From a virus (lineage: Duplodnaviria > Caudoviricetes), in IMG/VR virus record IMGVR_UViG_3300037478_000584, positions 1 to 56,257 of that record: 56,257 nt of DNA, one strand, 5' to 3'. Below, one piece after another: positions 33,984 through 53,329 of the stretch (position 1 is the first letter of the stretch; every line of letters begins with the position of its first letter). Both the position numbers and the translations under genes were made by a program. The notes under the pieces were generated by a model that did no database searches, was not told the DNA's origin, and saw only the letters and a program-made list of their open reading frames with translations.

Positions 33984-34023
33984 GCTTATGGTGGTGCGCG
34001 GCGTGGCTTACAGTGGCGGGATG
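33984..34023 (+). promoter_or_regulatory. GCTTATG-class leaderless promoter (TTATGG-17-TACAGT-6-ATG)
   Basis: Seen in sequence. Confidence 0.7.
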
Positions 34024-34398
34024 AACACTCAACGAAACGAACCGCGTACGTGGACCGTGCCGGAGCCGGAGGGACCGCGAAGTCTCGCACGGGCCGACGG
34101 CGCCTTCGTGCTGGTCAATGGCTGGCAGCTACGGTACGATCCGGAGCCGGAGCACCGTGCCGCAGTGACGGCGGAGTTCCGGGCCGAGCACCAGTGTGGG
34201 CGCAGCAGCGGACCGAACCGGGCCGAAGTGCGACGGCTCTATGCGACCAGTCGCGGGCGGGCGGGGAAGTTGGCGGACCGTGAAGGGGACAGGGCGCGAC
34301 TGATGTCCGCGTTGCTGCCTGGCGGCGCCCCGGTCAGCGACGAAAAGGAGCGGGCCGCGAGGAATCGGGCCAAGGCGAAGCGGAGGGCGCGGCGGTGA
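34021..34398 (+). CDS. hypothetical protein with basic C-terminus
   Basis: Leaderless ATG; C-terminus RNRAKAKRRARR. Confidence 0.55.
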   Translation: MNTQRNEPRTWTVPEPEGPRSLARADGAFVLVNGWQLRYDPEPEHRAAVTAEFRAEHQCGRSSGPNRAEVRRLYATSRGRAGKLADREGDRARLMSALLPGGAPVSDEKERAARNRAKAKRRARR

Positions 34399-34619
34399 AG
34401 GAACGGAATCGACGCGCCGACCTCATCGCGCTGTGCGACTTGTTCATCGGCGGCATCAGGTCAGGTTATGAGGAAGACGCGCCACGCCTCAACGGGCGAG
34501 AGGCGCTCGGACTGTCCAGGTCTGACCCAGACGACGAGGCCTACTTCGAATCGCTGGGCGTGGAGATGGTCCCGTTCCTGCGTGAATTCTGGCTGGAACT
34601 GCGGGGTCGCGATGTGTGA
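34395..34619 (+). CDS. hypothetical protein
   Basis: GTGA overlap, GGAGG RBS. Confidence 0.55.
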   Translation: MKERNRRADLIALCDLFIGGIRSGYEEDAPRLNGREALGLSRSDPDDEAYFESLGVEMVPFLREFWLELRGRDV

Positions 34620-34881
34620 CCACAATGACACCGTTCCGCTGCTCGTGTTCCTGCCGGCGAGTCACTCGCACACCGGCGAGGGACGATGGGTCACGAAGCC
34701 GGTTGACCGCTGTGTCGCGCCGTTGGTTGACGCCTTGAACCGGCACGGGGTGCTCACGCTCTCGTCTTGCTGTGGTCACGGCAAGGGGCCAGGGTCGATC
34801 CGTCTGCAAGACGGGCGGGAGTTGGCGGTTCACGAGCAGTTCGTGACCAGCAAGCCGCTCAACTTTGGGGCGCAGCAGTGA
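34612..34881 (+). CDS. phage protein of the D.C.A.LV.ALN..G..T..SCCGHG family (Tyw3-N-like motif)
   Basis: VDRCVAPLVDALNRHGVLTLSSCCGHG. Confidence 0.65.
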   Translation: MCDHNDTVPLLVFLPASHSHTGEGRWVTKPVDRCVAPLVDALNRHGVLTLSSCCGHGKGPGSIRLQDGRELAVHEQFVTSKPLNFGAQQ

Positions 34882-35120
34882 GCCAAGAAACGAGGGCGCC
34901 CGATTGGCTCTCGCACTGGTACCAGGCCCAGATCGCCGATCTATGGCACGTCCCTGTAGACGACGTTACCGTGACGTCGTGGAAACCGGGAGACGGCGTC
35001 AGGGCGACGGTGACGGTGCACCAGCCTGTTCACCGGGTGACGTTCACGATCCAAGAGTGCGAACCGGAGCCGGACGCTACGGAGCCGCCACCCTCGGCAC
35101 CGCCCCGCGACGCCCCCTAG
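34878..35120 (+). CDS. small protein, weakly sheath-C-terminus-like
   Basis: VRATVTVHQPVHRVTFTIQ; GTGA overlap. Confidence 0.5.
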   Translation: MSQETRAPDWLSHWYQAQIADLWHVPVDDVTVTSWKPGDGVRATVTVHQPVHRVTFTIQECEPEPDATEPPPSAPPRDAP

Positions 35121-35298
35121 CGAGCCACAGGAGCGCTTCCGCCATGTCGGCGGGGCGCTCGTAGCCTTGCAGGTACAAGTCGCGGCACACCGCCTCAACG
35201 TCGCCGCGAGGCGTATCGGGAAACGAGGCGCGGACCGTGGTGAGGAGTGGCGCGCGGTGGGCGTGCCAGAGGGCAGCGAAGGGGTCAGGCATCGCCAA
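35077..35298 (-). CDS. small protein resembling ECF sigma region 2
   Basis: FAALWHAHRAPLL...GDVEAVCRDLYLQGYE...LLWLAR. Confidence 0.45.
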   Translation of the reverse strand: MAMPDPFAALWHAHRAPLLTTVRASFPDTPRGDVEAVCRDLYLQGYERPADMAEALLWLARGRRGAVPRVAAP

Positions 35299-35605
35299 TC
35301 ACCGTGAAGTGGTCAATCACTGCGCTCGGGCGACGCATCGGGACGACGCGGTCCGTCGTTTCGCCACGCGTGATGTCCCACCGCTCACCGTTCGGAGGCA
35401 CGTCGCCGGGCCACCGTGGGTACCAGTGTGGAGTGTGCGGCACGCATGGCAGCGGTCCGATCACGGGACCGCCCTTGCGAAGCGCTTCCTCGATCTGCTC
35501 GCCGACGGTCTTGGCTTGCTGCGGCACGCATGGGCACCGCTCGACACCAGGCGCGACGCCTCCGTTGCATGCTGGACAGAGCCAGCCTTTGCGGTCAGCA
35601 CTCAT
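35285..35605 (-). CDS. zinc-ribbon phage protein
   Basis: GWLCPACNGGVAPGVERCPC. Confidence 0.6.
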   Translation of the reverse strand: MSADRKGWLCPACNGGVAPGVERCPCVPQQAKTVGEQIEEALRKGGPVIGPLPCVPHTPHWYPRWPGDVPPNGERWDITRGETTDRVVPMRRPSAVIDHFTVIGDA

Positions 35606-35786
35606 CGCATGTCCCAAGGTCGCACGCGCCGTAGAAGGTGTCTTCCGCGACGGAGCGCTCAATCTCGCGCGCGACGCGTTGCCGCTCGCTCCGCTTGGCG
35701 GCGCGGTAGTGCTCGGTCGGCACCTTGCCGTCGCAATCCATGTTGGTTGCGTCGCGCGAGACGCGGCCTTTGATGTGGGTCGTCAC
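35595..35786 (-). CDS. hypothetical protein
   Basis: GTGA overlap with the upstream ORF. Confidence 0.5.
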   Translation of the reverse strand: MTTHIKGRVSRDATNMDCDGKVPTEHYRAAKRSERQRVAREIERSVAEDTFYGACDLGTCDEC

Positions 35787-36274
35787 AGGAACGGACTCCG
35801 CTCGCCGATGCTCTTAGCTTCGAAGTAGTCGCGGCCCGCGTCTTTCACGAGGCGCTGTAGCAAGAACTCGCCTTGCAGCGTGTCGTTGCATCCCACCTCG
35901 CGACAGGCGAGCGTGACGATGCGCCTCTCACGCATCACCGTGCGCAGGTACCCACGGTGCTCGTCGGAGAGTGCCAACGACCCATGTACCGTGACGCTTT
36001 CGACGGGAGGCATCGAGTCGTCGCGCCCTACGATCGTGTCAGGAATCGGCGACACATCCTCGATGCGCAGGTCGCGGCAAAGGCTGACGAACATCCCGTC
36101 GACGAACACCGCCACCGATTCGGGGCGCGACTCACCGGCCAGGTTCATGGCGTCCACTTCCGCCATGGCCTCGCGCAAGCAAAGCAGAGCGGTCGCCTCG
36201 TTCTTGCCGCTACCGGTCAGCGTTACGGTGACGCCAGCGGCAGGAGACTTGTCGATGCGAATCGTGCGGCTCAT
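35783..36274 (-). CDS. diverged tail-tube paralog with N-terminal extension
   Basis: Colinear motifs shared with 30812..31192 (see findings). Confidence 0.65.
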   Translation of the reverse strand: MSRTIRIDKSPAAGVTVTLTGSGKNEATALLCLREAMAEVDAMNLAGESRPESVAVFVDGMFVSLCRDLRIEDVSPIPDTIVGRDDSMPPVESVTVHGSLALSDEHRGYLRTVMRERRIVTLACREVGCNDTLQGEFLLQRLVKDAGRDYFEAKSIGERSPFL

Positions 36275-36534
36275 GCCCGCGCCCCTTCCCACCGCCACCC
36301 CATGGCGCCCAACGTCTCGCCGCGGTCCAGGCCGTGCAGCACCCCGAGAAGGTGCGCGTCGGCCTGGTGCAGCAGCAGCGTGTGCATGAGTTGCTGACGG
36401 AACAGGATCGCGTCCGTAGCGGTCAGGAGCGGCTTGGTCGCCTGGCAGTACGACGGGGAATCGTAGCGCTGCGATTCCACCTCGGCGTTGATGCCGGCGA
36501 TGGTGGCGCCGAACTTAATAAGGCGGGACGTCAC
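36271..36534 (-). CDS. small protein resembling a major capsid protein segment
   Basis: GINAEVESQRYDSPSYCQATKPLLTATDA vs MCP GEAARVHETRGTDSYVCANRAFTDALDA. Confidence 0.5.
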   Translation of the reverse strand: MTSRLIKFGATIAGINAEVESQRYDSPSYCQATKPLLTATDAILFRQQLMHTLLLHQADAHLLGVLHGLDRGETLGAMGWRWEGARA

Positions 36535-36812
36535 TTGACGGACTCCGGGACGATGCGAGTCACAGTGAAAATCGCAGCAGGAGCTGGAAAGAGTCCAGCC
36601 CCGTCGTACTCAACAGAAAGGAGTCGATCCATTTCCTTCGAGTGCTCCGGGCCCGCTACCTTGAAATCCAATGCGTCGAAGAACTCCGACAGCGCGACTC
36701 CAAGTGCGACGATGGCTTCGGCCTCACCATCGGAGCCAATGGACTCTTTGAGGGCAACGTGCCTTTCCTCAATCGCATCCCGAAGCGCGTAGAGGTTCCT
36801 TTGGCTCTTCAC
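36531..36812 (-). CDS. stand-alone copy of the tail sheath C-terminal region
   Basis: LSVEYDGAGLFP vs sheath LSVQYDGAGRFP; GTGA overlaps at both ends. Confidence 0.75.
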   Translation of the reverse strand: MKSQRNLYALRDAIEERHVALKESIGSDGEAEAIVALGVALSEFFDALDFKVAGPEHSKEMDRLLSVEYDGAGLFPAPAAIFTVTRIVPESVK

Positions 36813-37381
36813 TTGACGCGCTCCAGCGCGACGGTCGGGTGCTTCTCGGTCTCGGTTGCTGCGTACTTGCCGCCGCTGAACGGATTGTACCGCTCCACTT
36901 CGCGCTCGCACGTGGCAATACCATCCGTGACGTCTACGACGACCTTATGCAGTCCGCCGCTCTTGAGCCGCACGACGTCGCCCGGTTCGATGGGGCGGTC
37001 GCCGATCTTGATGGTCTCGCCCATGATGTTGACGGACCAAACTCGGTTGCTCGGGTGTCGGCGGGCTACTCGGCGATTGCCGACACGTTCCACGCGGGGC
37101 AACGCGAGCGCATCGCACCGGTCATCCTTGCTGCAATCGTGCAACTCGCGGCGCAACTCCTCGGCCTTCGCCGCGTCGTCGTAGGCCATCTGGCGGACCG
37201 TGTCGGACAACTCTGCAAGCTCGATCGCAAGGTCGTCACGAAGGGCTCTGCGCTGCTCGTACTCACCAGCCGTGCAGTCGTAGAAGATGTGGGCGCCAAG
37301 CACAGCGTCAGCCGCCTTGATCGCCGAGAGGTGTTGCCGAAGGGCGTTATGCAGCTCGTTGCTACGTGGCTTGAGTTTCAC
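36809..37381 (-). CDS. hypothetical protein with C-terminal YodC/DUF2158-like domain
   Basis: PGDVVRLKSGG. Confidence 0.6.
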   Translation of the reverse strand: MKLKPRSNELHNALRQHLSAIKAADAVLGAHIFYDCTAGEYEQRRALRDDLAIELAELSDTVRQMAYDDAAKAEELRRELHDCSKDDRCDALALPRVERVGNRRVARRHPSNRVWSVNIMGETIKIGDRPIEPGDVVRLKSGGLHKVVVDVTDGIATCEREVERYNPFSGGKYAATETEKHPTVALERVK

Positions 37382-37575
37382 TTCGCACCCCCGAGCAGCT
37401 CACGCTTCGCACAGTCTCCGCACGTGGCGAAGCTTGACGGCGTGGTCTCGCCGGGGCGCATCCACACGAGGTCGCCCGCCTCGATGGTGTCGTCGCATTC
37501 GTGGCACGGAACTTCGCAAAGCACCATGTCGAAGTGTCCCGTGTGGCTGATGTGGTCGGTTGCGTTGCTATTCAT
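37378..37575 (-). CDS. small zinc-binding protein
   Basis: CHECDDTIEAGD...CGDC. Confidence 0.6.
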   Translation of the reverse strand: MNSNATDHISHTGHFDMVLCEVPCHECDDTIEAGDLVWMRPGETTPSSFATCGDCAKRELLGGAK

Positions 37576-37613
37576 GCCGCCACGTATCGCACGCCATCGC
37601 GCCGCCCATAAGC
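37573..37613 (-). promoter_or_regulatory. GCTTATG-class leaderless promoter (TTATGG-17-GATACG-7-ATG; weak -10)
   Basis: Intergenic motif heading the 37575-35077 operon. Confidence 0.55.
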
Positions 37614-37614
37614 G

Positions 37615-37962
37615 TCACGCAACGCGAATCAGCTTCACGGGCAGCGGCAATGGCTCACCATCGTCACCGTCCGGGCCGTCGTCGTCGCCCGCCGCATCCC
37701 ACTCTTGCAGGTGGATGATGCACGTATCGTCAATGCCGAACTCGATCGACATGACCGCCATCATGAACGCCCACGCGCGCCCGCCCAGTTCGGCCAGCAC
37801 CGCAATGAGCGTATCGTCACGGAGGTGTGGCCAGCACGCGTCAATCAGCACGCTGTCGGCGCTGCACTGCACGCGAATGGCGGGCTGCTTGTCATGCGAC
37901 AGAGCGAGCGTGAATGCTGCGCCGATGTCCGATGCGTCGCCGATCTGGAGGGAGCGGGTCAT
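37615..37962 (-). CDS. hypothetical protein
   Basis: ATGA overlap with the 37959 gene. Confidence 0.5.
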   Translation of the reverse strand: MTRSLQIGDASDIGAAFTLALSHDKQPAIRVQCSADSVLIDACWPHLRDDTLIAVLAELGGRAWAFMMAVMSIEFGIDDTCIIHLQEWDAAGDDDGPDGDDGEPLPLPVKLIRVA

Positions 37963-38732
37963 GGCTCTTGGTCCTCGCTCCCGTCCGGGCCGGTCAGGAT
38001 CCCGTCCTTGACCTGCACACCGTCCTCGTACAGGTCGGCGTCGTAGTCGCGCAGCACGTCGTCCGGCTCGACCAGTTGCTTGCCCTCGATTAACTCGCGG
38101 ACACGGAACATGGCGACGAATGCCGGATAGTCTCGGCCCGATACGCGGCGGCCAACGTCGCGGGTGTTCGCGTCGTCAATGCCGATCCGCTGCACACCTT
38201 GCCCGCCGAGCCATTCCCACTCGACGCCGTACGGTGCGTCCCATGATTCGTCGAGGGGCGTGCCGAGCGGGCGCGAGTTGTAACTCCACGTCGGGTGGTA
38301 GCCGTTCCGTGACGCTTTGGCGAATGCCGCGTCGACCGCATTGAACACGCCGCGCCGGTCGTCGAGCGCCGCTTCTTTCGGGCGCTCTTCGAACACGTAC
38401 ATGGCATGCACGTTCCGCTCGCGACCCTTCTGCACGATGCTGGGGTTCCACGGTACGGAGCGGCCGTCCCACCACAGATAGAGGGCAGGCACGTGGCGCA
38501 CCACGAAGTTCGCCTCGCGCTCGTATGGCGAGAAAGCGAACCGGTTCGCAGCGGGACAGGCGTCCGAGTTGTAGCCCGATACGTTGGCTAGTCGCGTGTC
38601 CAGCGCCTCTTTGATGTAGTGCGCCAGGAAGCTCAGCAGACCGTCGAGGAACGGATCGTCGACAGCGGCAGGCGCGGTGCCGGCCGTGATCGGAATCGTG
38701 AGCGCGCCGACGCGTGACGTTTCGGTGGGCAT
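37959..38732 (-). CDS. putative head-tail joining/tail terminator protein
   Basis: 257 aa, VPALYLWW; position downstream of the gp36-like gene. Confidence 0.55.
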   Translation of the reverse strand: MPTETSRVGALTIPITAGTAPAAVDDPFLDGLLSFLAHYIKEALDTRLANVSGYNSDACPAANRFAFSPYEREANFVVRHVPALYLWWDGRSVPWNPSIVQKGRERNVHAMYVFEERPKEAALDDRRGVFNAVDAAFAKASRNGYHPTWSYNSRPLGTPLDESWDAPYGVEWEWLGGQGVQRIGIDDANTRDVGRRVSGRDYPAFVAMFRVRELIEGKQLVEPDDVLRDYDADLYEDGVQVKDGILTGPDGSEDQEP

Positions 38733-38829
38733 CGTGCGCTACTTGCAGAGGCTATTGGAATCGAACCAACAGCACGCAGGTTTGGAGCCCGCATCGCCAG
38801 CCTTGAAACATGAGCCCCCAATCGGGGCG

Positions 38830-39117
38830 TCACCAGCCAACGCGGACCTTTGCGACGTCCGTGCCAGTGGCGATGATGGTCTCCACGTACAGTGGCGACG
38901 GGTCCAGGTACGTGCCGCTCACGAGGCCCGTGTACGTCCGGTTGGCGCTGCCGCCAGAGGTCGTGACCACGATCGATCCGCTGCCGGCGTCGACGATGAA
39001 GATCGCGCGGGCCGGCGTTCGCGTATCGGGAGACGCCGAAACGAGATTGATGTCGACGCTGAAGTCGTCGTATTCGAGCGCGTCTTCGTGCGCGTGGATG
39101 GCTCGCTGTCGTGGCAT
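38830..39117 (-). CDS. head spike base-like protein (RcGTA Rcc01079-like)
   Basis: PARAIFI..GSGSIVVT....TYTGLVSGTYL...VETIIATGT. Confidence 0.6.
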   Translation of the reverse strand: MPRQRAIHAHEDALEYDDFSVDINLVSASPDTRTPARAIFIVDAGSGSIVVTTSGGSANRTYTGLVSGTYLDPSPLYVETIIATGTDVAKVRVGW

Positions 39118-39118
39118 G

Positions 39119-39158
39119 GCTTATGGTGCGGCTCGTTGCGAGCTATCGTGGTGCGATG
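39119..39158 (+). promoter_or_regulatory. GCTTATG-class leaderless promoter (TTATGG-17-TATCGT-6-ATG)
   Basis: Seen in sequence. Confidence 0.7.
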
Positions 39159-39347
39159 CGTGAAGGATGGCGCGAATTGCTGGACCACATGCGCGACGTA
39201 GCGGAGCGTTGCCCACCGCGACCAACGCGCGTCATCATGACGGGTAGCGTCGTGATGTGGTTCGATGCGGAGACGGGGAAGCTTGTCAACGCACGAACGA
39301 TCAGCGGCGTAATGCGAGAACTCAGAACGCCCCCATTCCACGCGTGA
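39156..39347 (+). CDS. small moron protein (MREGWRELLDHM...)
   Basis: Leaderless start; antisense to the head genes. Confidence 0.55.
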   Translation: MREGWRELLDHMRDVAERCPPRPTRVIMTGSVVMWFDAETGKLVNARTISGVMRELRTPPFHA

Positions 39348-39807
39348 AGAACGGCGGGCACGGGGTCGTATCGTCCGGGTCGCCACTCCGCACGCCGCCG
39401 CCTTCATTGACGGCGGGCTCCGGTGCGGCGCCTTCATTGTCGAGTTCAAGCTCACGGACGCGGAGCATCTTGAGGTGGCTCTCCACCATTGCTTCGCGCT
39501 GCGCCCATCCGCCACGAATGAACTCGGGGTGACGCCTCATGGCACGCACCTCGAATACATCGAGGGCCATGCGCTTGACGGCACGTGGCGCATCGGTACC
39601 GAGCGCGCGCATCGTCGTGATCCCGCCCGGTCCGTACGTCTTCTGAATGGTCTGCTCCACCACGGACTCAGCGTCCGCGATGTAGTCATTGACCAGGTCT
39701 TCGTCGACCGTACCGTCACGGTCATCGTCGAAGATCTGTTCGTACAGCTCCGACGTGAGACGGCGCGTGATGTCCGCCTCGATCAGGTACGTGCCGGCGA
39801 TGGCCAT
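39322..39807 (-). CDS. head-tail adaptor (Mu gp36/DUF1320)
   Basis: YLIEADI...DDDRDGTVDEDLVNDYIADAESVVE. Confidence 0.8.
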   Translation of the reverse strand: MAIAGTYLIEADITRRLTSELYEQIFDDDRDGTVDEDLVNDYIADAESVVEQTIQKTYGPGGITTMRALGTDAPRAVKRMALDVFEVRAMRRHPEFIRGGWAQREAMVESHLKMLRVRELELDNEGAAPEPAVNEGGGVRSGDPDDTTPCPPFFTRGMGAF

Positions 39808-39810
39808 TGG

Positions 39811-40278
39811 TCAGTTAGCCGCCCGCACGAATTCGCACCCCTTGCCGCGCGCCTCATCGAGACAGCGCTCCGGGACGCTCATCGTGCCGCCACCCATGAT
39901 GCGCTGCCGCACCTTGACGCCGCCGATCGTGCCGGCAAACGGGCCACTGCCCGTCCAGCGCACGACCACGTAGGGCTCGGATGGCGCCGCCTCCTCAGGC
40001 TCCGGCTCGACCGGAGCGTCCGGTTCGGCGGCCTGAGGTTGCGGCTCGGTGGATTCGTCGGACTCAGAATCGGCCCCAGGAAGCTCCGCGTCGTCCGGAC
40101 CGGCAAGCACCGGCTCGGAGGGTTGCGGCGCGCCCTGGTGGCCGTCAGGCGCCGGGGCGTGGCTGCCTGGACCGGGACCACCCGGCACGGACTGCTCCGC
40201 CTCGACCGAGATGGCCGGCTCGCTTTCGGTGGGGGCCGGAGCGGACCCCGGCCCACGGGTACGATTGCGACGGCTCAT
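39811..40278 (-). CDS. hypothetical Pro/Glu-rich protein after the capsid gene
   Basis: 155 aa ORF in the head operon. Confidence 0.55.
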   Translation of the reverse strand: MSRRNRTRGPGSAPAPTESEPAISVEAEQSVPGGPGPGSHAPAPDGHQGAPQPSEPVLAGPDDAELPGADSESDESTEPQPQAAEPDAPVEPEPEEAAPSEPYVVVRWTGSGPFAGTIGGVKVRQRIMGGGTMSVPERCLDEARGKGCEFVRAAN

Positions 40279-40284
40279 CTAGAC

Positions 40285-41550
40285 CTACGCCAGAACGTCC
40301 GAGTACAAATAGCCCGCGTCAGACGCCTGGATCTTGTGCGCCTCGGACTCGCCCACCTTGGCCCAGTACGAGCCGCCGAAGCCCTTGTTGGGCTCGAACC
40401 ACTGCGAGGTGAGAATGCCCTGGTTCATGCCGGGAACGCCGGCGGCGAGCCAGCGCATCGTGAGAGCGAACGTGGCGGACCGGAGCGTGGCGCGCTCGGC
40501 GACACGGAGGACGCCGAAGAAGTCGCCCCACACCCGCGAGTAGGTGGGCGTCGCGATGTTGACCGCGTCGCTGTCGTACCGCGACTTGCCGATGAGGTAG
40601 TCGTCGAGACCGAGGAACGTCGAGATCATGCCGGGGGTCGCGAGACCGACCGACTGGCCGCTGTACTGGAAGAGTCCGGTGATGTCCGGGTGCCGCGACA
40701 GGACGTTGTAGATCTCCAGGCTGGAGAACGCCTTGGTGCGCGCCGGAGACCGACCGCGCCAGAGCGCCGCGATGGCGTCCTGGATGTTCTTGAGCGGTGC
40801 GCCGCCGCCCGCGCTGTTCCACTGGTCAGCACCGGCGAGCGTCGCCTTGTTGCCGCTGGGGTAGTTGCCAGCGGTGGTGAGCGCCGACGCGATACGAATC
40901 TCACGAGCCAGTGCGCGACGCTCCACGAGGCCCTCAACGAGATCGAACATCTCATTGAGCGGCGCGTCCTGGTTCGCCACGGTGTCGGCGTCGAGAGCGT
41001 CCGTGAAGGCCCTGTTGGCGCAGACGTAGCTGTCGGTGCCGCGGGTCTCGTGAACACGAGCCGCCTCGCCGCCAACCGCCACCGAGTCATTGGCCGGGAG
41101 GGCCAGACGGTCACGCTTGCCATAGGTCGGGAACTCGTCGCTCTTCTTGCCGACCAGCACGGGCGGCGCGAGCATCTCGCCGATGAACTCGTCGTTTCCG
41201 TACTGCGTCGAGATCTGCGCCAGGAACGAATCGCTGTGGACGTCGCTCGAACTCAGGCTGTTGCGCACCCGGCGGTCGAACGAAGCGTTCTGCGCCTGCC
41301 AGGCCTTGGTGCCGCGCGGGTCGCTGATCGCCGAATGGATCTTGCGCGACCAGTTGCGGTAGCGATTGCCAGGGCTCGCAGCGTTGCGCTGCCGTTCGCC
41401 GAGGATGGCGTGCCAGGCCGCGTCGGCGTCGTACCCACGGGTACCAACGCCAGCGCCCTCGAACGCCTTGATGTTCTCCATGTCCGCATCGGACAGGACC
41501 ACGGTCTTCTTGACGGGCTCGCCGCCGGTGATTGCACTCATTGCTGTCAT
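40285..41550 (-). CDS. major capsid protein (Phage_cap_E-like)
   Basis: LAQISTQYGNDEFIGEMLAPPVLV, LAREIRIA, DQW....PLKNI, DAGYLYSDVLA. Confidence 0.9.
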   Translation of the reverse strand: MTAMSAITGGEPVKKTVVLSDADMENIKAFEGAGVGTRGYDADAAWHAILGERQRNAASPGNRYRNWSRKIHSAISDPRGTKAWQAQNASFDRRVRNSLSSSDVHSDSFLAQISTQYGNDEFIGEMLAPPVLVGKKSDEFPTYGKRDRLALPANDSVAVGGEAARVHETRGTDSYVCANRAFTDALDADTVANQDAPLNEMFDLVEGLVERRALAREIRIASALTTAGNYPSGNKATLAGADQWNSAGGGAPLKNIQDAIAALWRGRSPARTKAFSSLEIYNVLSRHPDITGLFQYSGQSVGLATPGMISTFLGLDDYLIGKSRYDSDAVNIATPTYSRVWGDFFGVLRVAERATLRSATFALTMRWLAAGVPGMNQGILTSQWFEPNKGFGGSYWAKVGESEAHKIQASDAGYLYSDVLA

Positions 41551-41985: not shown

Positions 41986-43275
41986 TCAGCTAAGCGAGGC
42001 GGCGAATCGCGCAAACGCGTCCTCGTCGCCGGAGTCATTGATGCTCTCGGGAAGCGGCTCTTTGCCCATTCCCGCCGGGTCAGCGCTGAGCGTCGTCTTC
42101 GGCGCGCGCTGCTCCACGAACTTGTTGAAGAGGTCGCGATTCGTCTTCGCCAGGGCGAGGTACTGATCGCGCTCACACGGGTCGATCTTCACGCCGACCA
42201 ATGCGTCGACCTCGGCCGCGAGGACCTGGTCGTTGAGCGCCGCGGCGTTCTTGACCGCCTCGTCACGCTCGGCACAGAGCTTCTCGTTCTGCGCGTTGAG
42301 GGCCGCGACGTCAGCGGCGAGCTTGATCGACTCGTCCGCCTTGGCCTTCGCCTCGGACTTGGCCGCATCGAGAGCGGCATTCGCGGAATCGCGCTCGGTG
42401 CGCATCTGGGCGGTCTCGCCCTGCGCGGCCTTGAGCGCGGCTTGCAATTCAGTAAGGTCCACTTTGGGAGCCTCCGGTGTTTGGTTGTTGCTATCAGCGC
42501 CGCGCTCTGCGGCGAGAATCTGGGAGAACCGGGAAGCTTCGAAGCTCGTCGCCGCGTCCGCGATTAGTTTGAACGAGGCAATGACCTCGTCATGATTGGT
42601 TGCGCGGAAGGTGTGCTTACGACCGCTCGCCACGATGTTCAGGTCCGGCGCGTTCTTGCTGCGGCCTAGCAGGCTCGCGGCAATGCGGCTGATGCTCGCC
42701 ATCGCGCTATCCGCCTCATCGTCCGCCACCATGACGCCAGTGCAGAACCCGTCCCGCACCGCGTCCTCGGCGCCCATCCACGTCTCGGCCCGCATCAACT
42801 CGCGGCATTCGTCGAAGCTCTTTGCGGACCGGCGCTCATAGGTCTTGCACAGCGCGTCCGCGATGAGGTCGAGCGATTCGGCCTGGGACCGGAAGTCCTC
42901 GGCGTTGCCCATTGCGATGGTCCACGGATCGTGAATCATCACCATGGCATTCTCCGCGATGAGCCGCTCCGTGCCGGCCATTGCGATGATGCTCGCAGCG
43001 GAGATGGCCGCGCCATCCACCTTCGTTACGATCTTGCGACCGTCATTGACGAGGAGGTTGTAGATCGCCACGCCCTCGAACGCGTCGCCGCCGAACGAGT
43101 TGATCCGCACCACGATGTTGTGGTGACGGGGCGCTTCCTTCAGCTCCGCAGCGATACGGTTCGCCGTAACGGCGTTCTCGTTCCACCACGACTCGCCGAT
43201 GTCCGAGTAGACAAGGATCTCCGTCTCACCCAGCGCCACGGCCTGCGGCTTGGCCGCGTCAATCTTCGTCGGCAT
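41986..43275 (-). CDS. ClpP-type head maturation protease fused to scaffold
   Basis: RINSFGGDAFEG, AISAASIIAMAG, MIHDPW, ETWM; coiled-coil C-terminus. Confidence 0.9.
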   Translation of the reverse strand: MPTKIDAAKPQAVALGETEILVYSDIGESWWNENAVTANRIAAELKEAPRHHNIVVRINSFGGDAFEGVAIYNLLVNDGRKIVTKVDGAAISAASIIAMAGTERLIAENAMVMIHDPWTIAMGNAEDFRSQAESLDLIADALCKTYERRSAKSFDECRELMRAETWMGAEDAVRDGFCTGVMVADDEADSAMASISRIAASLLGRSKNAPDLNIVASGRKHTFRATNHDEVIASFKLIADAATSFEASRFSQILAAERGADSNNQTPEAPKVDLTELQAALKAAQGETAQMRTERDSANAALDAAKSEAKAKADESIKLAADVAALNAQNEKLCAERDEAVKNAAALNDQVLAAEVDALVGVKIDPCERDQYLALAKTNRDLFNKFVEQRAPKTTLSADPAGMGKEPLPESINDSGDEDAFARFAASLS

Positions 43276-45502: not shown

Positions 45503-45543
45503 GCTTATGGTCGCGCAGCGGAGCGGGTAGGCTCGACGCTATG
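45503..45543 (+). promoter_or_regulatory. GCTTATG-class leaderless promoter (TTATGG-17-TAGGCT-7-ATG)
   Basis: Seen in sequence. Confidence 0.7.
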
Positions 45544-45792
45544 GGCAACGACTTGGTCGACTACACACTAAACAGCGGCGTTACGGTTCGGACCACCCGC
45601 GCCGACATTGAAGAGGCGAGGTGGAGCGATGTGATGCTGGGCGTGTCGTACTGGACCGACAACGGAGACGGCACGTGGTCATGCGTTCCGGGTATGCGGT
45701 TCGTGTCGGCCCCGGAAGGTGGCGACCCCGTCACGGTTGACGAGGAGCGCGCCGAAGCGGCACACGACGTAGAGGCCGGCGCTGTCGAGTGA
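45541..45792 (+). CDS. small acidic moron protein
   Basis: Leaderless start; antisense between terminase and portal. Confidence 0.6.
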   Translation: MGNDLVDYTLNSGVTVRTTRADIEEARWSDVMLGVSYWTDNGDGTWSCVPGMRFVSAPEGGDPVTVDEERAEAAHDVEAGAVE

Positions 45793-45945: not shown

Positions 45946-47334
45946 TCAGCCGAACCCGCGCCCCATCCCACCGTAGCGGGACGTGGAGGCCCGGCTCGCG
46001 GCGACGTCGGCGTAGCTGGTCAGGTCGACGCTTGCCGCGGCGAGGTCCAACTCAGTGAGCCCCCACACGAGCGCGTCGACCCTGTTCGGTGACCGGGCGC
46101 TCGGGTCCGATGCGTCCCAGGTCGTCATCTCTTCTTCCAGCTTGGGGAACACCCCGACGTGGAAGACCTTGCCCTGTTCGTACAGGGCCGCTACGGGCTC
46201 GGCACGGGCTCGCTTGCCACGACTGGCGTTGACCTTGCGGAACGGCACATGGCGCCCCTCAGGGCGAGCTGTGCGGAGCGTGTGCTCCACCATGTCGGCG
46301 CCGAAGTTCGCCTCTGCAACGATGAGGTTCGCGCTGTGCTTCTCGTACAGCTCTATTGCCTTACAGGCCCACTCGTTCGGCGAGTAGCGGCCTGAGGCGT
46401 CCTCAAGCACGTAGCCGCGACGGTGCTTATCCACTGCCGTGACGACGATGCCAGCCTCGTCGCTGGTCGTGTTGTTCGTGCCGGACGGGTCGATAGAGAC
46501 GATGACGCGCGTCGGCCTGATGTCCTCTTCGGCGATGCGCAGGATAGCGTCGAGCTTCCAGAGCGCCCCGGGGACATCCTCTAGCAGCGCGGCGTAGAGT
46601 TCCTGTCGGCCAAGGCGCGTCCCTTCGTACTTCTCACGAAGCACCCGCATGGCCTCTGGTGAGAGGTTGGCGGCGTTGTCGAACGTGCTACCGGTCGTTA
46701 GCAAGACGCGCGGGTCGTCGCCCTTCGCGTCTTTTACGAGCGCTTTGATCTGCGCTGTTGGGCGTGGGGTCGTAGTGACGACCACCTGCGGGACACAGCC
46801 GGGAAGACGCAGCCCCATGCGGAGCTGGTCGAAAGATTCGGGATAGCGCCAGGCGGCCAGTTCGTCGCACCACGCCTTATGGTACTGCGGGCCACGGAAA
46901 CGGTTCGGCTCGTCGGCGCTCAGGAGGATGCCGGTGGCCCCGTTCGGCCACGTGACGCGGCGCTTGCTGGGCTCGTACAGGACGTCAGCGTACAGCGAGC
47001 AGAGGCCCGAGTTGCCTTCAAGCATAACGTCGCGAATATCCGCGGCCGTCGCTCCGGCGAGCGCGATCCGCATGCCCGGCATGCTGCGAGCCCACGTGTT
47101 GACCGTCTCCGATCCGGTGCGGCTCTTGCCCCACCCACGCCCGGCCATGATGAGCCAGACGAGCCACCAGTCGCCCGGTGGTATGAGTTGGTCGTGGCGC
47201 GCTGCCTTGAGCCAGGCGCTCTCAGTGGGACTCGACGACCGCAGCGCTTCCAAGCGCTTCCGGGCTATCGTCGGCAGCAGCCCACGCTTCGAGTAGCCGC
47301 GCAAACTGGTCGCGGTCGAGAACTCGCTCGGCAA
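45946..47334 (-). CDS. terminase large subunit (start uncertain)
   Basis: AGRGWGKS Walker A, FRGPQ, WCDELAAW, VTTTP, SIDP, EANFG, NRVDAL. Confidence 0.95.
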   Translation of the reverse strand: MPSEFSTATSLRGYSKRGLLPTIARKRLEALRSSSPTESAWLKAARHDQLIPPGDWWLVWLIMAGRGWGKSRTGSETVNTWARSMPGMRIALAGATAADIRDVMLEGNSGLCSLYADVLYEPSKRRVTWPNGATGILLSADEPNRFRGPQYHKAWCDELAAWRYPESFDQLRMGLRLPGCVPQVVVTTTPRPTAQIKALVKDAKGDDPRVLLTTGSTFDNAANLSPEAMRVLREKYEGTRLGRQELYAALLEDVPGALWKLDAILRIAEEDIRPTRVIVSIDPSGTNNTTSDEAGIVVTAVDKHRRGYVLEDASGRYSPNEWACKAIELYEKHSANLIVAEANFGADMVEHTLRTARPEGRHVPFRKVNASRGKRARAEPVAALYEQGKVFHVGVFPKLEEEMTTWDASDPSARSPNRVDALVWGLTELDLAAASVDLTSYADVAASRASTSRYGGMGRGFG

Positions 47335-47686
47335 CGTCTACGTACCTCTCCAGCTCGTTGGCCACCTGAATGCGCACCTGCGGACCGAACTGGTCGCGGT
47401 CTAGCTTTTCGAGGAGCCACTGTGCATGCGCGCCGCCCTTCGGCAGACTGGCATGCGTCTGTACGACCTTGACGAGGTTGACCTTTGCCTGAGCACGCGC
47501 GCGCGCTATTGCGTCCACGAAGTCCGCGTAGGGCTCCTGTCCGTCACGCCCCTTGGCGGTCCAGTCGTAGAAGGCGGAGCGCGACACACCGCAGCACTCC
47601 GCAGCCGTAGCGGGGAAGTTCCCGGCATCGATGAGCGCAACGATAGCGTCCCGCAACTCATCCGTCAGCTTCGTCGGGCGTCCCAT
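47222..47686 (-). CDS. terminase small subunit-like HTH protein
   Basis: GRPTKLT...AAECCGVSRSAFYDW...AQWLLEK; upstream of TerL. Confidence 0.75.
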   Translation of the reverse strand: MGRPTKLTDELRDAIVALIDAGNFPATAAECCGVSRSAFYDWTAKGRDGQEPYADFVDAIARARAQAKVNLVKVVQTHASLPKGGAHAQWLLEKLDRDQFGPQVRIQVANELERYVDVAERVLDRDQFARLLEAWAAADDSPEALGSAAVVESH

Positions 47687-48302: not shown

Positions 48303-48307
48303 CTAAG

Positions 48308-48374
48308 AGTCACGCCGCGGATTCGAACCGCGCCCTCGGGTACCCCCGAGCCTGACCCAGCATATCGCGTGACT
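48308..48374 (-). ncRNA. tRNA-like element/pseudo-tRNA
   Basis: AGTCACGC/GCGTGACT stem, perfect T-arm CGCGG-TTCGAAT-CCGCG, hairpin CTCGGG-GGTA-CCCGAG; no D-stem, no CCA. Confidence 0.6.
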
Positions 48375-48425
48375 ACCGAACCGGTATGCATCCCGGCTTA
48401 GCCGTCGGCGCGGCAAGGACTGCTG

Positions 48426-48659
48426 CTATGCCGCCTCGTGAGGCGACTGGAAGTTGTGCGCCACCGCAATGGCGTCTCGCTCCAGATTGTGCTGGAGCAC
48501 TTGCATGCCGTGGATCGCCATGCTGGCCCACTGCTCGCCGGAGAAGAGCGCGTCGATGTGGTCCCGTCCGAGCAGGAGGATCGTGGGGCGCCGGCCCGTT
48601 GCGAGGTGGTGGCTGTCCGCTGCGTCGCGGATCGTGACCATGAGTTGCTCGGTGGTCAT
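48426..48659 (-). CDS. small protein resembling a capsid A-domain segment
   Basis: IRDAADSHHLATGRRPTILLLGRDHIDALF. Confidence 0.55.
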   Translation of the reverse strand: MTTEQLMVTIRDAADSHHLATGRRPTILLLGRDHIDALFSGEQWASMAIHGMQVLQHNLERDAIAVAHNFQSPHEAA

Positions 48660-48729
48660 GGGCGGCACCGTTGGCGAGGTCGCGGATCGACCGTGCTGCC
48701 GCGCCCCACTGGCACCTGCGGCGACAACG

Positions 48730-49777: not shown

Positions 49778-50115
49778 GGCTGACTCGGCGGTCCGTTCAT
49801 CATCATCTCGAAAGCGTCCTCGATGTTCTCGAATGGTACCAGCTCGTCCTCTCGGTTCGCGTAGGCCTTGGCGCACCGCATCACACGGGCACCGAGCACT
49901 GCGAGAATGTTGGCGCCGGCCTTCTTGCCTGGCTTCTTGCTGACGTAGTCGGGATTGAAGTCTCGCAACGTCATCTCAAGCGCGTCCTGTATGACGTCGT
50001 CCAGGTCGTGAGGCGGGCAGTTGATGTGATGGCGCGCCATGAAGCTGGTCGCATACTGGCGCGCCTTCTCAAGCAGCAACGCCCCGTCAATCTTCGGCGC
50101 GCCCAGGCTACCCAC
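49774..50115 (-). CDS. stand-alone sigma70 region 2-like protein
   Basis: DLDDVIQDALEMTLRDFNPD. Confidence 0.55.
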   Translation of the reverse strand: MGSLGAPKIDGALLLEKARQYATSFMARHHINCPPHDLDDVIQDALEMTLRDFNPDYVSKKPGKKAGANILAVLGARVMRCAKAYANREDELVPFENIEDAFEMMMNGPPSQP

Positions 50116-50467
50116 GGTCGCCCCCAGGGTCTCGCCTCGGATGAAACCACCGTCGGTTTGAGAACGCGTGAGAGTGCCCGCAGATGCATCTCCACTCTTG
50201 GGTGCCGCGCTGAAACTCTCCCGCGGGGACGTTCAGAAGCTCCACGATCGTTGCTCGGTGCAGAGCGCGCCGAACTGCGAACTTCGGCTCCGCGAACCCG
50301 TCAACCGAAGCTAGCCCTTCCCAGTGATCATTGACCAGTGACCACTTCCTTGCCTCGCAGTGCGGAAGCAGCGGATCCCTATCGTATTGGTCCGCAAGGC
50401 GCGACATCCTCAGGTTGTGCGCCGTGACAGCGGCCACCGCCTTGATCCACGAATCTTCGTCTACCAT
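50108..50467 (-). CDS. hypothetical protein, portal-fragment-like (alternative start 50533)
   Basis: RMSRLADQYDRDPLLPHC vs portal RLVQLANEARQKDGHLQSC. Confidence 0.5.
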   Translation of the reverse strand: MVDEDSWIKAVAAVTAHNLRMSRLADQYDRDPLLPHCEARKWSLVNDHWEGLASVDGFAEPKFAVRRALHRATIVELLNVPAGEFQRGTQEWRCICGHSHAFSNRRWFHPRRDPGGDRG

Positions 50468-50496
50468 GGCCCGCAGCGCCTCGTCGTTGTGTCGTT

Positions 50497-50537
50497 CATG
50501 CTCCGGACTATACGTCTCAATCCGCACCGTCATAAGC
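50497..50537 (-). promoter_or_regulatory. GCTTATG-class promoter (TTATGA-17-TATAGT-7-ATG)
   Basis: Seen in sequence; best -10 of the set. Confidence 0.65.
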
Positions 50538-50852: not shown

Positions 50853-51283
50853 CCCACCGCCTCACCAAACCAATCGACCTCCACCATCGTCGTCGTGGTC
50901 GTATGCACCTTGTCGCGGTAGACCGTCTCGCGCTCGCTGCGGTCCGGGCTGACCATCTCAATTGGCTCGCTCACCACCGTCTTCGTCGTCTCCTGCCACG
51001 CCCTCACTGCCGCAACCTTCCCCTCCGCATGAATGAGACCGAAGCGTATCGCAACGCGCTCACAAGACCGCCATGCCGCCATGGCTCGCTCCGCCGCGTC
51101 GCGGCCCGTGGTGTTGAGGTGCGCGCGGAGTTGCACCGGCTCGCGGCGGACGACCGGGACCGGTACGCCTCGGTACACACCGGCCCATTCCACCTCCGGC
51201 GGATCGACTTGCTCCACCGTGCCCGACCAGTTGAGGCCGAGCAGGGTGATTGGCACGTAGGTCTTCAGCGGGCTGTGGATCAT
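50843..51283 (-). CDS. hypothetical protein, tail-tube-like pattern
   Basis: WSGTVEQVDPPEVEWAGVYRG; ATGA overlap. Confidence 0.5.
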   Translation of the reverse strand: MIHSPLKTYVPITLLGLNWSGTVEQVDPPEVEWAGVYRGVPVPVVRREPVQLRAHLNTTGRDAAERAMAAWRSCERVAIRFGLIHAEGKVAAVRAWQETTKTVVSEPIEMVSPDRSERETVYRDKVHTTTTTMVEVDWFGEAVGWW

Positions 51284-51978
51284 GGCTTCACGGCCCGCAC
51301 CGTTTCGCCGTCGTCGCACAGCGTCAGGAGTGCCCCGGGCACAAGTCCCGCGTTGGCACGGAACGCATATGCGTCCCAGTCAACGCCGACCAAGGCGAGC
51401 CCGTTCGACAGATACCTGACGAACGTGCCGATCGGCACATCGCGCCCAGGCTTATCGTTGCCCCGCACCAGCCCCGCCAGCCCCGCAAAGAACGCCGCCG
51501 CCGCTTCCCCGACCTTCGTGAGCCGTTCCAACACTTCGCCGTCCGTCTCGGTCCAGATCTCAAAGAGCCCCTGCGTGACCTGCCGTGGCATGCCCATGCG
51601 GTCCGCCCAGTCATCTAGCTGTGCGCCGCGTGCCAGGTCGAGACGGGGCGCTTGGGCGAGGTAGCTTCCGGCCATTGCTATCGCGCTAGCGGCAGTGACG
51701 GTGCGCACCGTGCCGCTCAGCGGCTCGTCACCCATAATCGCGCGCCGCATCCGTTCCTCAACCTGCCGCAGGGTATAGACGAAGAGCAGATCGTTCGCGC
51801 TGGGGTTATACACAACCCACTCACCGCCACGATTCGCCTCGACCTCATGCGTCGCGAACCCACACGTCGCGCACCGCACCCGCTGCGTAACGTCGCCGTC
51901 CGCGTCGGTCGTGGCGCACCCGTAGGCACGGAGCGTTCCGGTGCAGCCCGGTTTGATGCAGTGTCTCATGTGGCTCAC
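51280..51978 (-). CDS. zinc-ribbon protein carrying a baseplate-J-like segment
   Basis: CIKPGC...CATCG; ARGAQLDDWADRMGMPR...ETDGEVLERL. Confidence 0.55.
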   Translation of the reverse strand: MSHMRHCIKPGCTGTLRAYGCATTDADGDVTQRVRCATCGFATHEVEANRGGEWVVYNPSANDLLFVYTLRQVEERMRRAIMGDEPLSGTVRTVTAASAIAMAGSYLAQAPRLDLARGAQLDDWADRMGMPRQVTQGLFEIWTETDGEVLERLTKVGEAAAAFFAGLAGLVRGNDKPGRDVPIGTFVRYLSNGLALVGVDWDAYAFRANAGLVPGALLTLCDDGETVRAVKP

Positions 51979-52277
51979 TCGACCCCCTCCGGCCGCAACT
52001 CGATGTGCAGCCTACAACGGCCACCAGCTCCAAGTTCCGCCGCGGCAGCGAGGATGCGGGCCGCGAAGTCCGAGCGCTCCGTGAGTTGCAGTACGACCTC
52101 AACATAGCCAGCGCGAATGGTGAGCTTGTCGTCGTCCAGACGAAACGGTCCGTCCGCGCTGAGGCGCTCGACGTAGCACGGCACCACGAACCCCACGGTG
52201 CGCTCCTCACGCTTCTTCACCTCGACGAAACGCCGCAGAGCAATCGCCCCGCTCCACTTTGGCTCTGTGTCGCTCAT
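51975..52277 (-). CDS. hypothetical protein
   Basis: ATGA-coupled ORF. Confidence 0.5.
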   Translation of the reverse strand: MSDTEPKWSGAIALRRFVEVKKREERTVGFVVPCYVERLSADGPFRLDDDKLTIRAGYVEVVLQLTERSDFAARILAAAAELGAGGRCRLHIELRPEGVE

Positions 52278-52507
52278 GCCTCGCCGCCCTCCGCCGCCAC
52301 TCGCCCCACGAACTCCTCAGCCGCCTCGGCCGTCAGCACGTCCGTGCCGCCTCGCAACACGACGCGCGTCACGGTGCGGCCGTTCCGGTCCTCCTCGAGC
52401 GCTGCCGTGACGTCCCGCGACTCCACGAAGCCGCCGCAACCGGTGCCGACCGGTACGATGCGGATGAGGCTCACGGTGCCGCCTCGCAGCTTTCCGAATG
52501 GCTGCAT
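52274..52507 (-). CDS. hypothetical protein
   Basis: Coupled ORF; start uncertain. Confidence 0.45.
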   Translation of the reverse strand: MQPFGKLRGGTVSLIRIVPVGTGCGGFVESRDVTAALEEDRNGRTVTRVVLRGGTDVLTAEAAEEFVGRVAAEGGEA

Positions 52508-52815
52508 GTGTTCACGGAGCGGACGGCGGCGACCTCGCCCGACGTGGCCGGTTTAGGGTCGTAGAGCCACTGTGCGGACGGATCGTCGCGGTTCATGACG
52601 GACCACCGGCAGACTCGATACCCCTCGCCGCACCGCACGCAGCGTCCGTATGTGCAGTCGTGCGAATCGAAGGCTTCCGCATCGGCGCGCACCGCAACCC
52701 GCCCCTGGCACGTCTTGAACTTGCAGTGACCCCAGCTGCCACCGACAGTCAGCAACTCTCCACTCAACTCAGTTCCCTTCATCATCGTCCCCATCCTCTC
52801 CCATCCGTCCCGCAA
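52471..52815 (-). CDS. Cys-rich hypothetical protein
   Basis: CKFKTC...CVRCG; start uncertain. Confidence 0.45.
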   Translation of the reverse strand: MRDGWERMGTMMKGTELSGELLTVGGSWGHCKFKTCQGRVAVRADAEAFDSHDCTYGRCVRCGEGYRVCRWSVMNRDDPSAQWLYDPKPATSGEVAAVRSVNTCSHSESCEAAP

Positions 52816-52990
52816 TCAACCGCACCACCACGACCGGCCACCAAACGGCCATGCCCGTGAAGGCGCTCAACGCGTCGGCAAACTCCACGTCGTCCAGCCT
52901 GCCGTGGTCCTCTGCGAGCGAGATCATGGCGTGCGCGACCAGTCCGCCAATGAGCAGGTACGCGACGATGCTCGCCACGAATGTGCTCAC
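52769..52990 (-). CDS. small membrane protein
   Basis: Two hydrophobic segments, YLLIG...WWP. Confidence 0.55.
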   Translation of the reverse strand: MSTFVASIVAYLLIGGLVAHAMISLAEDHGRLDDVEFADALSAFTGMAVWWPVVVVRLIAGRMGEDGDDDEGN

Positions 52991-53292
52991 CGCAACCTCA
53001 CGGACAGCACCCTCTCGCTCCCGTCCGCACCGACGAACACCACACGGCCACCGGCCGCTACGTGGCGCACGATTGCGAGGTAGACCTTGGCGCCGCGTAC
53101 CGCTGCGGTGATGCCATCGTCCGTGGTGAGGCGCGCCAACTCCGTCATGGCGTCTTGCATCTGTTGGTCGCGCGACGCATCGCCACTCTTCGCCGCAACG
53201 CGCTTGCCGACCGCATCGACGAACGCGTCCAGTCTCTCACTGTCGCGCTTGCGCATCATGTCGGCCAGTCGCGATACGAAGTCGTCTTTCAT
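52987..53292 (-). CDS. hypothetical protein (possible RHH-like C-terminal half)
   Basis: Leaderless start. Confidence 0.55.
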   Translation of the reverse strand: MKDDFVSRLADMMRKRDSERLDAFVDAVGKRVAAKSGDASRDQQMQDAMTELARLTTDDGITAAVRGAKVYLAIVRHVAAGGRVVFVGADGSERVLSVRLR

Positions 53293-53329
53293 GCCGCAAT
53301 CCTCTCACGCTACACCGCGCCCCATAAGC
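53290..53329 (-). promoter_or_regulatory. GCTTATG-class leaderless promoter (TTATGG-17-GAGGAT-6-ATG)
   Basis: Seen in sequence, overlapping the end of the RuvC-like gene. Confidence 0.6.

Follow-up and report, generated by a model that had tools for sequence, protein, structure and literature searches.

The virus record IMGVR_UViG_3300037478_000584 raises the question of whether a phage can carry diverged pieces of its own tail subunits as accessory genes and, if so, what these pieces would do. The window analysed here is the complete 56,257-bp IMG/VR record, which belongs to a high-GC myophage and has a completeness estimate of 97%. A preliminary description of positions 33984-53329 had proposed that several small open reading frames (ORFs) in this region form a co-regulated arsenal of virion-protein fragments. 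The six ORFs that it named exist, at coordinates that are exact or within a few codons (the one claimed at 48426-48659 was called at 48426-48668). Of the six claimed SIMILARITIES, two held (ORF a, with the tail sheath's C-terminus, and ORF b, with the tail tube), whereas the other four are at chance level. ORFs a and b are neighbours within an inserted island, and the origin and role of this pair are the subject of the present analysis.

Two small ORFs related to the tail sheath and the tail tube

The genes concerned are listed below, where GC3 is the G+C content at third codon positions and PHROGs and Pfam are the family databases used.

36531-36812, minus strand: ORF a, 93 residues; the ~33-73 residues towards its C-terminus share homology with the C-terminal end of the sheath (~409-500)
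36271-36534, minus strand: ORF c, an 87-residue ORFan between a and b; GC3 0.89; capsid similarity unsupported
35783-36274, minus strand: ORF b, 163 residues; N-terminal extension of ~52 residues followed by a diverged tail-tube domain
31204-32751, minus strand: tail sheath, parent family of ORF a (phrog_165, E 1.3e-44; PDB tail sheath 9khy, E 1.6e-9; 93 homologues at E <= 0.001)
30812-31192, minus strand: tail tube, parent family of ORF b, assigned by structural model and Foldseek; adjoins the sheath in relatives

The assignment of the tube finds no support in PHROGs. Its AlphaFold2 (AF2) model, obtained with 22 homologues (predicted local distance difference test, pLDDT, 72), resembles tail tubes of known structure, among them those of monocin, lambda, SPP1 and phage 812, in Foldseek with E about 1e-4 and a probability of 1.00.

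Each claimed ORF was compared with 13 virion proteins by Smith-Waterman alignment, with 200 composition-preserving shuffles. Against the sheath, ORF a reached a z of 8.6 and its score was attained by 0/200 shuffles; BLASTP gave an E of 2e-6 with 15/33 identical residues at sheath positions 466-498, and the site of ORF a was recovered at E 0.001 when the sheath was searched by tblastn against the six-frame translation of the window. With a profile of 19 sheath sequences, hhalign placed residues 14-86 of ORF a collinearly with sheath 409-500 (73 columns, E 2.1e-4). The same C-terminal place was found in the five closest sheaths, which are 63-100% identical to that of this phage (z 7.6-10.8), and the signal weakens in more distant ones. 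Among the conserved C-terminal residues of the sheath clade (alignment A1), ORF a keeps P469 and G487. It has no match in Pfam or PHROGs, the sheath families PF04984 and PF17482 included. By these alignments, ORF a is a fragment-sized relative of the sheath and not a sheath.

The relationship of ORF b to the tube was observed with a z of 7.4 (0/200 shuffles reaching the score), a BLASTP E of 7e-6 at 23/100 identical residues and, against an alignment of 22 tubes, an hhalign E of 2.6e-3 at a probability of 11.6%. The three closest tubes gave z values of 11.1, 7.9 and 6.3, and distant tubes were unmatched. No sequence match to ORF b was obtained in Pfam, PHROGs or PDB. Its Atlas model (pLDDT 0.57) provides a lead only: tail tube, Hcp and DUF1833 clusters make up six of the ten matches listed, at template modelling (TM) scores of 0.35-0.44.

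A screen of 28 accessory ORFs against 40 proteins of the virion modules (1120 pairs) ranked the a-sheath pair first and the b-tube pair second. The two ORFs are adjacent, with ORF c between them, and follow the order and orientation of the sheath and then the tube, a layout that chance would seldom yield. In the motif shared by ORF a and the sheath, nucleotides are identical at 19, 21 and 8 of 33 codons for positions 1, 2 and 3, respectively, the values at positions 1 and 2 being inflated by the choice of the best-aligned window; in the alignment of ORF b with the tube the corresponding numbers are 40, 42 and 31 of 86. Synonymous sites are thus at random level while codon positions 1 and 2 remain alike, which indicates that the similarity persists at the protein level and argues both against a recent DNA copy and against free decay. 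We read ORFs a and b as probable descendants of a sheath/tube pair of the close clade of this phage, which would since have drifted off the family constraints.

An accessory island between neck and tail genes

ORFs a and b belong to a segment with the following layout.

37959-38732, minus strand: conserved neck/tail gene, head-side flank of the island; homologues in 36/62 related loci
37607-37613, minus strand: GCTTATG core heading the minus-strand operon; -10-like box ~18 nucleotides downstream and ATG of 37378-37575 31 nucleotides downstream
37378-37575, minus strand: 65-residue ORF with a CxxC...CxxC pattern, first gene of the operon, apparently leaderless; no Pfam or PADLOC match
36809-37381, minus strand: ORFan of 190 residues with GTGA overlaps that couple it to the genes on either side
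35077-35786, minus strand: three small overlapping ORFs that close the operon (35595-35786, 35285-35605, 35077-35292); no Pfam match
34021-35120, plus strand: four overlap-coupled ORFans (34021-34398, 34395-34619, 34612-34881, 34878-35120), convergent with the minus-strand operon
33984-33990, plus strand: GCTTATG core of the plus-strand operon, abutting the point where the tail gene 33434-33982 (minus strand) has its start codon
33434-33982, minus strand: conserved tail gene, tail-side flank of the island; homologues in 42/62 related loci

Related loci were collected by alignment of the sheath. This yielded 62 loci whose sheaths are 31-45% identical to that of this phage, the closest relatives (P0004-P0007, 63-75%) lying outside this set; 31 distinct loci hold both flanking genes. 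Searches of viral and genome contigs with the portal found no related loci. The gene order in the 62 loci is portal, capsid, homologue of 39322, homologue of 37959, homologue of 33434, sheath and tube. The conserved place of the tube beside the sheath is filled by 30812-31192 and not by ORF b, which has 0 homologues in the 62 loci, and the genes from 34021 to 37962 have matches in 0/62. The distance from flank to flank is -60 to +32 bp in 25/31 loci and 320-604 bp in 6/31, compared with 3,976 bp here. Since none of the 62 loci has the island genes and the flanks nearly abut in most of the loci that hold both, the island must have been inserted in this lineage in particular, and its absence from the relatives implies that these build their tails without a and b. 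Segment 33983-37958 is a lineage-specific accessory (moron) island composed of two inward-facing operons, each behind a GCTTATG site. The two DNA sequencing runs that contain the sequence are labelled sediment metagenomes, and one of them is probably its source; they yielded only contigs identical to the window and hence offer no population variation. No RNA run is listed among those with the sequence. ORF b had no tblastn match among 50,697 phage records.

Two further genes on the minus strand within the conserved neck-tail stretch, 32751-33317 and 37615-37962, have no homologue in any of the 62 loci and no Pfam or PHROG match, and represent further lineage-specific insertions. The flanking gene 37959-38732 was considered as a tail terminator from its position after the Mu Gp36-like gene; its 13-sequence profile had no PDB match and none of its members a match in Pfam, and the name is no more than a positional guess.

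The minus-strand operon consists of eight ORFs that run from the promoter at 37613 to 35077 and are linked one to the next by overlaps of GTGA, ATGA or greater length. The translational coupling of adjacent genes noticed in the preliminary description is borne out: stop-start overlaps of the GTGA or ATGA type join 36809-37381, 36531-36812, 36271-36534, 35783-36274 and 35595-35786, and a GGAG or G-rich box lies ~10 nucleotides upstream of a, c, b and the next gene. ORF b displays G+C contents of 0.65/0.47/0.81 at codon positions 1/2/3, like the genes of this genome, and contains no stop or frameshift across 163 codons at 23-27% identity; ORF c likewise shows the coding pattern normal for this genome. 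An open frame of 163 codons would occur in random 65%-GC sequence with a chance of ~0.015 by our estimate. On these grounds we take ORFs a and b to be genes and not debris. The 2023 PADLOC library gave no match for ten island and moron ORFs.

In the related loci, the junction between sheath and tube is itself a site of insertion. Among 29 loci, four (L062, L031, L009 and L012) carry 592-1511 bp of extra ORFs between the two genes; the insert of L062 (11583-12959) consists of ORFs of 114 and 340 residues. Insertion at the sheath/tube junction therefore recurs in this phage group, and a donor of the form 'sheath end - extra ORF - tube' is plausible. L062 was also considered as the holder of P0004, the closest sheath relative, and was discarded at only 37% identity.

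Possible origins and functions of the pair

Sheath and tube proteins self-assemble. The reading that we tentatively prefer, at somewhat less than even chances, is that a and b bind growing contractile tails and cap them instead of extending them. One copy of a 'sheath 3' end - (inserted ORF) - tube' junction would have been captured in the island and would have diverged until its synonymous sites were saturated. In phage Mu, sheath subunits are described as joined by a four-stranded 'handshake' made of the N-terminal arm, the C-terminal arm of the neighbour and a two-stranded sheet of domain I (PMC11915804), and the conserved core of sheath proteins as formed by their N- and C-terminal parts (PMC9230969). 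The pieces that end the Mu sheath are reported to imitate parts of the handshake, the initiator gp46 resembling domain I and the terminator gp37 using a C-terminal hairpin (PMC11915804). ORF a would keep the C-terminal hairpin region used in the handshake, without the rest of the subunit, and could enter the handshake yet not propagate it. ORF b would keep the core of the tube without the family-invariant residues and could join a ring or a stack yet not extend it. Such chain-terminating mimics might keep co-infecting relatives from assembling their tails, or might restrain assembly in the phage itself. Modelled as a complex, the sheath (19-row alignment) and ORF a scored 0.00 in a run that had no controls and bears neither way.

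Several observations weigh against the capping reading. The whole-screen significance of the pair is moderate, ~0.006 for a and ~0.05 for b in a Gumbel estimate over the 1120 pairs, and becomes strong only once adjacency and order are counted. In ORF a the conserved His H500 is replaced and the end of the ORF precedes E510 (alignment A1). Its GC3 of 0.64 is the second lowest of 78 genes, ~3 standard deviations under the mean of 0.80, with operon neighbours at 0.81-0.89, which fits weak selection or decay. Of the family-invariant tube residues T35, G42 and G62 (alignment A2), ORF b keeps G42 only (1/3), so that it may no longer bind tube rings. A hidden Markov model (HMM) of 33 tubes misses ORF b at E <= 10 in a six-frame search and gives 2.7 bits in a one-to-one comparison, and AF2 folding of ORF b alone produced an unusable model (pLDDT 37). 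In a search of 5.8 billion clusters ORFs a and b retrieved no homologue other than themselves, ORF b had none in an exhaustive search of 1.84 billion representatives, and no second sheath-like or tube-like fragment was found in the 62 related loci: the pair is a single case and not a recurrent system.

The strongest competitor, a contender that we nevertheless regard as doubtful, is a recombination relic, in which a, c and b would be left from a partial duplication, or from an exchange between related phages, at the sheath/tube junction. The frames would still be open and perhaps translated, but would have no tail function, being in decay unless b was recruited elsewhere. Much of what has just been listed suits it, namely the aberrant GC3 of ORF a, the loss by b of two of the three invariant residues, its escape from the family HMM and the lack of homologues of a and b anywhere searched. 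The order and orientation copy the sheath and then the tube, nearly all of a is collinear with sheath 409-500 as expected of the remnant of a 3' gene end, and the 592-1511 bp sheath-tube inserts of 4/29 related loci furnish a fitting donor. A decaying remnant is harder to reconcile with synonymous positions that are saturated while positions 1 and 2 are still alike, with the 163 stop-free codons of b and its normal coding pattern of G+C, and with the precision of the overlap coupling and of the GGAG boxes.

An elaborated form of the capping reading appears improbable to us. According to it, a and b would be matched mimics of polymer ends, a handshake fragment and a crippled tube respectively, expressed from a phage-specific leaderless promoter, and would cap and poison the growing contractile tails of competing phages or tailocins or titrate tail-sensing immune receptors.

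ORFs a and b might instead be lineage-specific minor components of the virion or of its assembly, for instance an extra cap or collar at the end of the tail. Paralogues with a tube fold or a sheath-like fold are normally tube initiators, tube terminators or sheath initiators (in the account given by PMC11915804), and the genes do sit between the head and tail modules. However, they are absent from 62 loci that keep the same neck-to-tube order, they share the promoter class of the helicase operon and of small opposite-strand genes instead of lying inside the conserved operon, and b is devoid of the family-invariant residues, so that we consider a virion role quite unlikely.

Immune decoys that bind host tail-protein sensors without triggering them are a still poorer prospect for a, b or both. 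Tail tube sensors exist: Avs16 is reported to contact a beta-hairpin of the tube (PMC13581612), and the tube activates DSR2, which a phage protein in turn blocks (PMC10981675, in its description of this system). Both ORFs are accessory and have their own promoter. No sensor of the sheath is known, the sheath being mentioned in the pertinent part of PMC13581612 only as a possible future target; one would expect a copy of the tube to activate a tube sensor and not to silence it; and no PADLOC model was matched.

Chance resemblance in a high-GC proteome is very improbable. The identities are low (15/33 and 23/100), the HMM of the tube family misses b and the whole-screen significance of b is marginal on its own, but neither score was reached by any of the composition-preserving shuffles, the signal repeats at the same positions in independent close relatives, the two matches are neighbours ordered like their targets, and the structural matches of the Atlas model lean to the tube fold. 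Weakest of all and scarcely credible is the full claim of a co-regulated arsenal of six or more virion-protein fragments, for although the GCTTATG promoter class and two of the six similarities are real, the other four lie at chance level with z values of -0.56 to 1.16 against the claimed partner and the profile scores obtained are negative.

The other claimed fragments

Apart from ORF c, the ORFs whose resemblance to virion proteins did not hold are the following.

48426-48668, minus strand: claimed 'capsid segment', ORFan without capsid similarity
50108-50467, minus strand: claimed 'portal segment', ORFan without portal similarity
51280-51978, minus strand: claimed 'baseplate J segment', ORFan without similarity to 19524-21050

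The capsid similarity proposed for ORF c and for 48426-48659 was not recovered (z 1.16 and -0.32), and a capsid profile of seven relatives gave both a negative bit score. The same outcome was obtained for the portal similarity of 50108-50467 (z -0.56; negative bit score with a portal profile of seven relatives). For 51280-51978, the comparison with the Baseplate_J protein 19524-21050 gave a z of 0.62, and nothing baseplate-like appeared in Atlas. None of the six claimed ORFs has a Pfam match, and the sole PHROG match is that of 51280-51978 to phrog_587, marginal at an E of 0.0079 over 24 residues. Further 'weaker cases' had also been proposed, and the 1120-pair screen offers nothing robust past a-sheath and b-tube. 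Its one additional candidate and third-ranked pair, 36809-37381 against the C-terminal end of 37959-38732 (z 6.0), was rejected, with -1.5 bits from the family HMM and an hhalign E of 0.17. On this evidence the four other claimed mimics are ordinary ORFans, and no support emerges for a full six-gene arsenal or for a new system made up of many virion fragments. The description of the ORFs as lying outside the structural genes is half right, in that the span 33984-53329 includes terL and the portal, protease, capsid and connector genes, i.e. the whole head module.

The GCTTATG promoter class

The GCTTATG motif, on which the idea of co-regulation relied, is real: the window contains eight sites compared with 1.86 expected, and 0/100 shuffles reach eight. 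They are located at 75-81, 37607-37613, 50531-50537 and 53323-53329 on the minus strand and at 15727-15733, 33984-33990, 39119-39125 and 45503-45509 on the plus strand. In their common layout, GCTTATG is followed after ~18 nucleotides by a TAnnnT-like box and, 6-7 nucleotides further, by ATG or GTG. This start codon lies 30-31 nucleotides downstream of the motif at 8/8 sites, a spacing that would imply leaderless or nearly leaderless mRNAs. Real ORFs are opened by five of the eight (34021-34398, 37378-37575, 39156-39347, 45541-45792 and 52987-53292), and one site runs off the end of the record. The remaining two open mini-ORFs, of 9 residues before the helicase gene (site 15727) and of 12 residues before 50108-50467, which may encode leader peptides or may just be short leaders. 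The 12-residue one (50461-50499, minus strand, promoter at 50537) overlaps with its end the start of 50108-50467 at position 50467. Related loci totalling 706 kb contain the motif 27 times, which is the background rate, and 1/27 has such a start codon. Judged by these counts, it is a real motif and one that is specific to this phage. A consensus scan for textbook sigma-70 promoters over 33000-40000 gave 0 promoter-like sites; the GCTTATG class does not belong to that textbook type.

The proposal that the claimed ORFs are co-regulated holds only trivially. All plus-strand genes right of 15 kb are behind a GCTTATG site and the head genes are downstream of two. As the motif also heads the helicase operon and the plus-strand genes and lies upstream of the head genes, sharing it says little about the claimed ORFs in particular.

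Three genes associated with the motif deserve mention. The plus-strand gene 45541-45792 encodes an 83-residue ORFan with its own GCTTATG within the head operon, flanked by terL and by the gene that precedes the portal, a placement that recalls that of Tab in JBD26 as described in PMC10884400; it had no PADLOC match and no tblastn match among the 50,697 phage records. The 63-residue ORF 39156-39347, on the plus strand opposite to its neighbours, is wedged with its own GCTTATG between two connector genes, and its promoter core abuts the opposite-strand start codon of 38830-39117 in the same way as at 33984/33982. The 419-residue protein 17154-18413 (plus strand) matches an HNH-endonuclease PHROG at an E of 1e-52 and has several helix-turn-helix (HTH) matches, including sigma-70 region 4; it appears to share a GCTTATG-headed transcript with the helicase and can be proposed as a regulator of the promoters of this phage. 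Together, the eight sites would constitute a ready map of the independently transcribed accessory genes of this uncultured phage.

Gene map of the window

The G+C content of the record is 63-68%, and because it is high the raw list of 465 ORFs of at least 50 residues is mostly noise. Genes were therefore called from the G+C pattern at codon positions, and nearly all called genes are on the minus strand. A loose Shine-Dalgarno-like pattern precedes 32/75 called starts and many genes begin 1-6 nucleotides past the preceding stop; the host probably relies little on Shine-Dalgarno pairing. Apart from the ORFan run, the features below were assigned by family scan.

55024-56154: sliding clamp
54568-55020: pyrophosphatase
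53305-53886: RuvC-like protein
47.7-53.3 kb: ORFan run
47222-47686: small terminase-like HTH protein
45946-47334: large terminase
43259-44809: portal
41986-43320: head protease
40285-41550, minus strand: major capsid protein
39322-39807: Mu Gp36-like adaptor, weak (PF07030, E 1.6e-4, below the cut-off)
24548-26673: baseplate hub proteins
19524-21050: Baseplate_J protein (Pfam)
15736-18413, plus strand: helicase and HNH/HTH protein
438-1823: amidase

No integrase or repressor was seen among the genes scanned. By megablast, the 50,697 phage records include no close DNA relative, and the best identities of the capsid protein are only 25-27%, with B3-like Pseudomonas and Xanthomonadaceae phages. 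This capsid protein has ~100 N-terminal residues more than B3-like capsids, and its alignments to isolates begin at residue 110; the capsids of two metagenome relatives (L031 and L033) align with it from residues 3-7.

Comparison with known systems

Morons that interfere with virion assembly are, to our knowledge, known from one family, Tab. Among the articles listed in the open-access literature searched, no phage was reported to encode tail-protein copies that act as decoys or as dominant negatives. Tab of the Pseudomonas phage JBD26 is described as a blocker of tail assembly, encoded by a prophage moron that has its own promoter within the late operon (PMC10884400), and is the known precedent for the idea of an assembly poison. 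A Tab-type blocker stops sensitive phages from assembling tails and is countered by a partner while its own phage goes through the lytic cycle. The a/b pair resembles Tab and anti-Tab in being encoded by small accessory genes with their own promoter in a virion-gene region. It differs from them in that Tab, in the account of PMC10884400, is without similarity to structural proteins and targets the tape measure protein. Tab-type models gave no sequence match in PADLOC 2023, a library that may not contain Tab.

A second likeness is to the sheath initiators of the Mu gp46 / T4 gp25 type and to the tail terminator Mu gp37 with its C-terminal hairpin, small proteins that start or stop the polymerisation of the sheath by imitating part of the handshake, with a two-stranded sheet or with a hairpin in place of the arms (PMC11915804, in its treatment of the sheath ends). 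ORF a would retain the matching C-terminal part of the sheath. Unlike ORF a, which is in an inserted island and absent from the 62 loci, gp46/gp25-type proteins and gp37 are encoded by conserved core genes of the baseplate or neck modules. Duplicated tail sheath genes have also been described in some (jumbo) phages, where paralogous copies arose within one genome by duplication, as may hold here (PMC9230969). These duplicates are presented there as full-length second sheaths, whereas in this phage the last ~100 residues occur as a 93-residue ORF beside a diverged copy of the tube. DSAD1 and other sensor blockers are small accessory phage proteins that act at the interface of the tail tube and a host sensor; in the accounts given by PMC10981675 and PMC10973363, DSAD1 is not described as a homologue of the tube.

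Morons and paralogues of tail subunits are already known. What stands is a single unusual locus, identified by alignment and gene order, in which a diverged sheath end and a diverged tube are encoded together in a lineage-specific moron operon. Even as a relic, it would be a clean example of mosaic junctions in phage genomes turning parts of structural genes into small, novel ORFs. If the capping reading is true, subunit mimicry would reach the same end as Tab by a different route, with diverged copies of exactly the two tail subunits that polymerise; under the elaborated form, judged improbable above, this would be the first case in which a phage made an interference weapon out of divergent versions of its own tail subunits.

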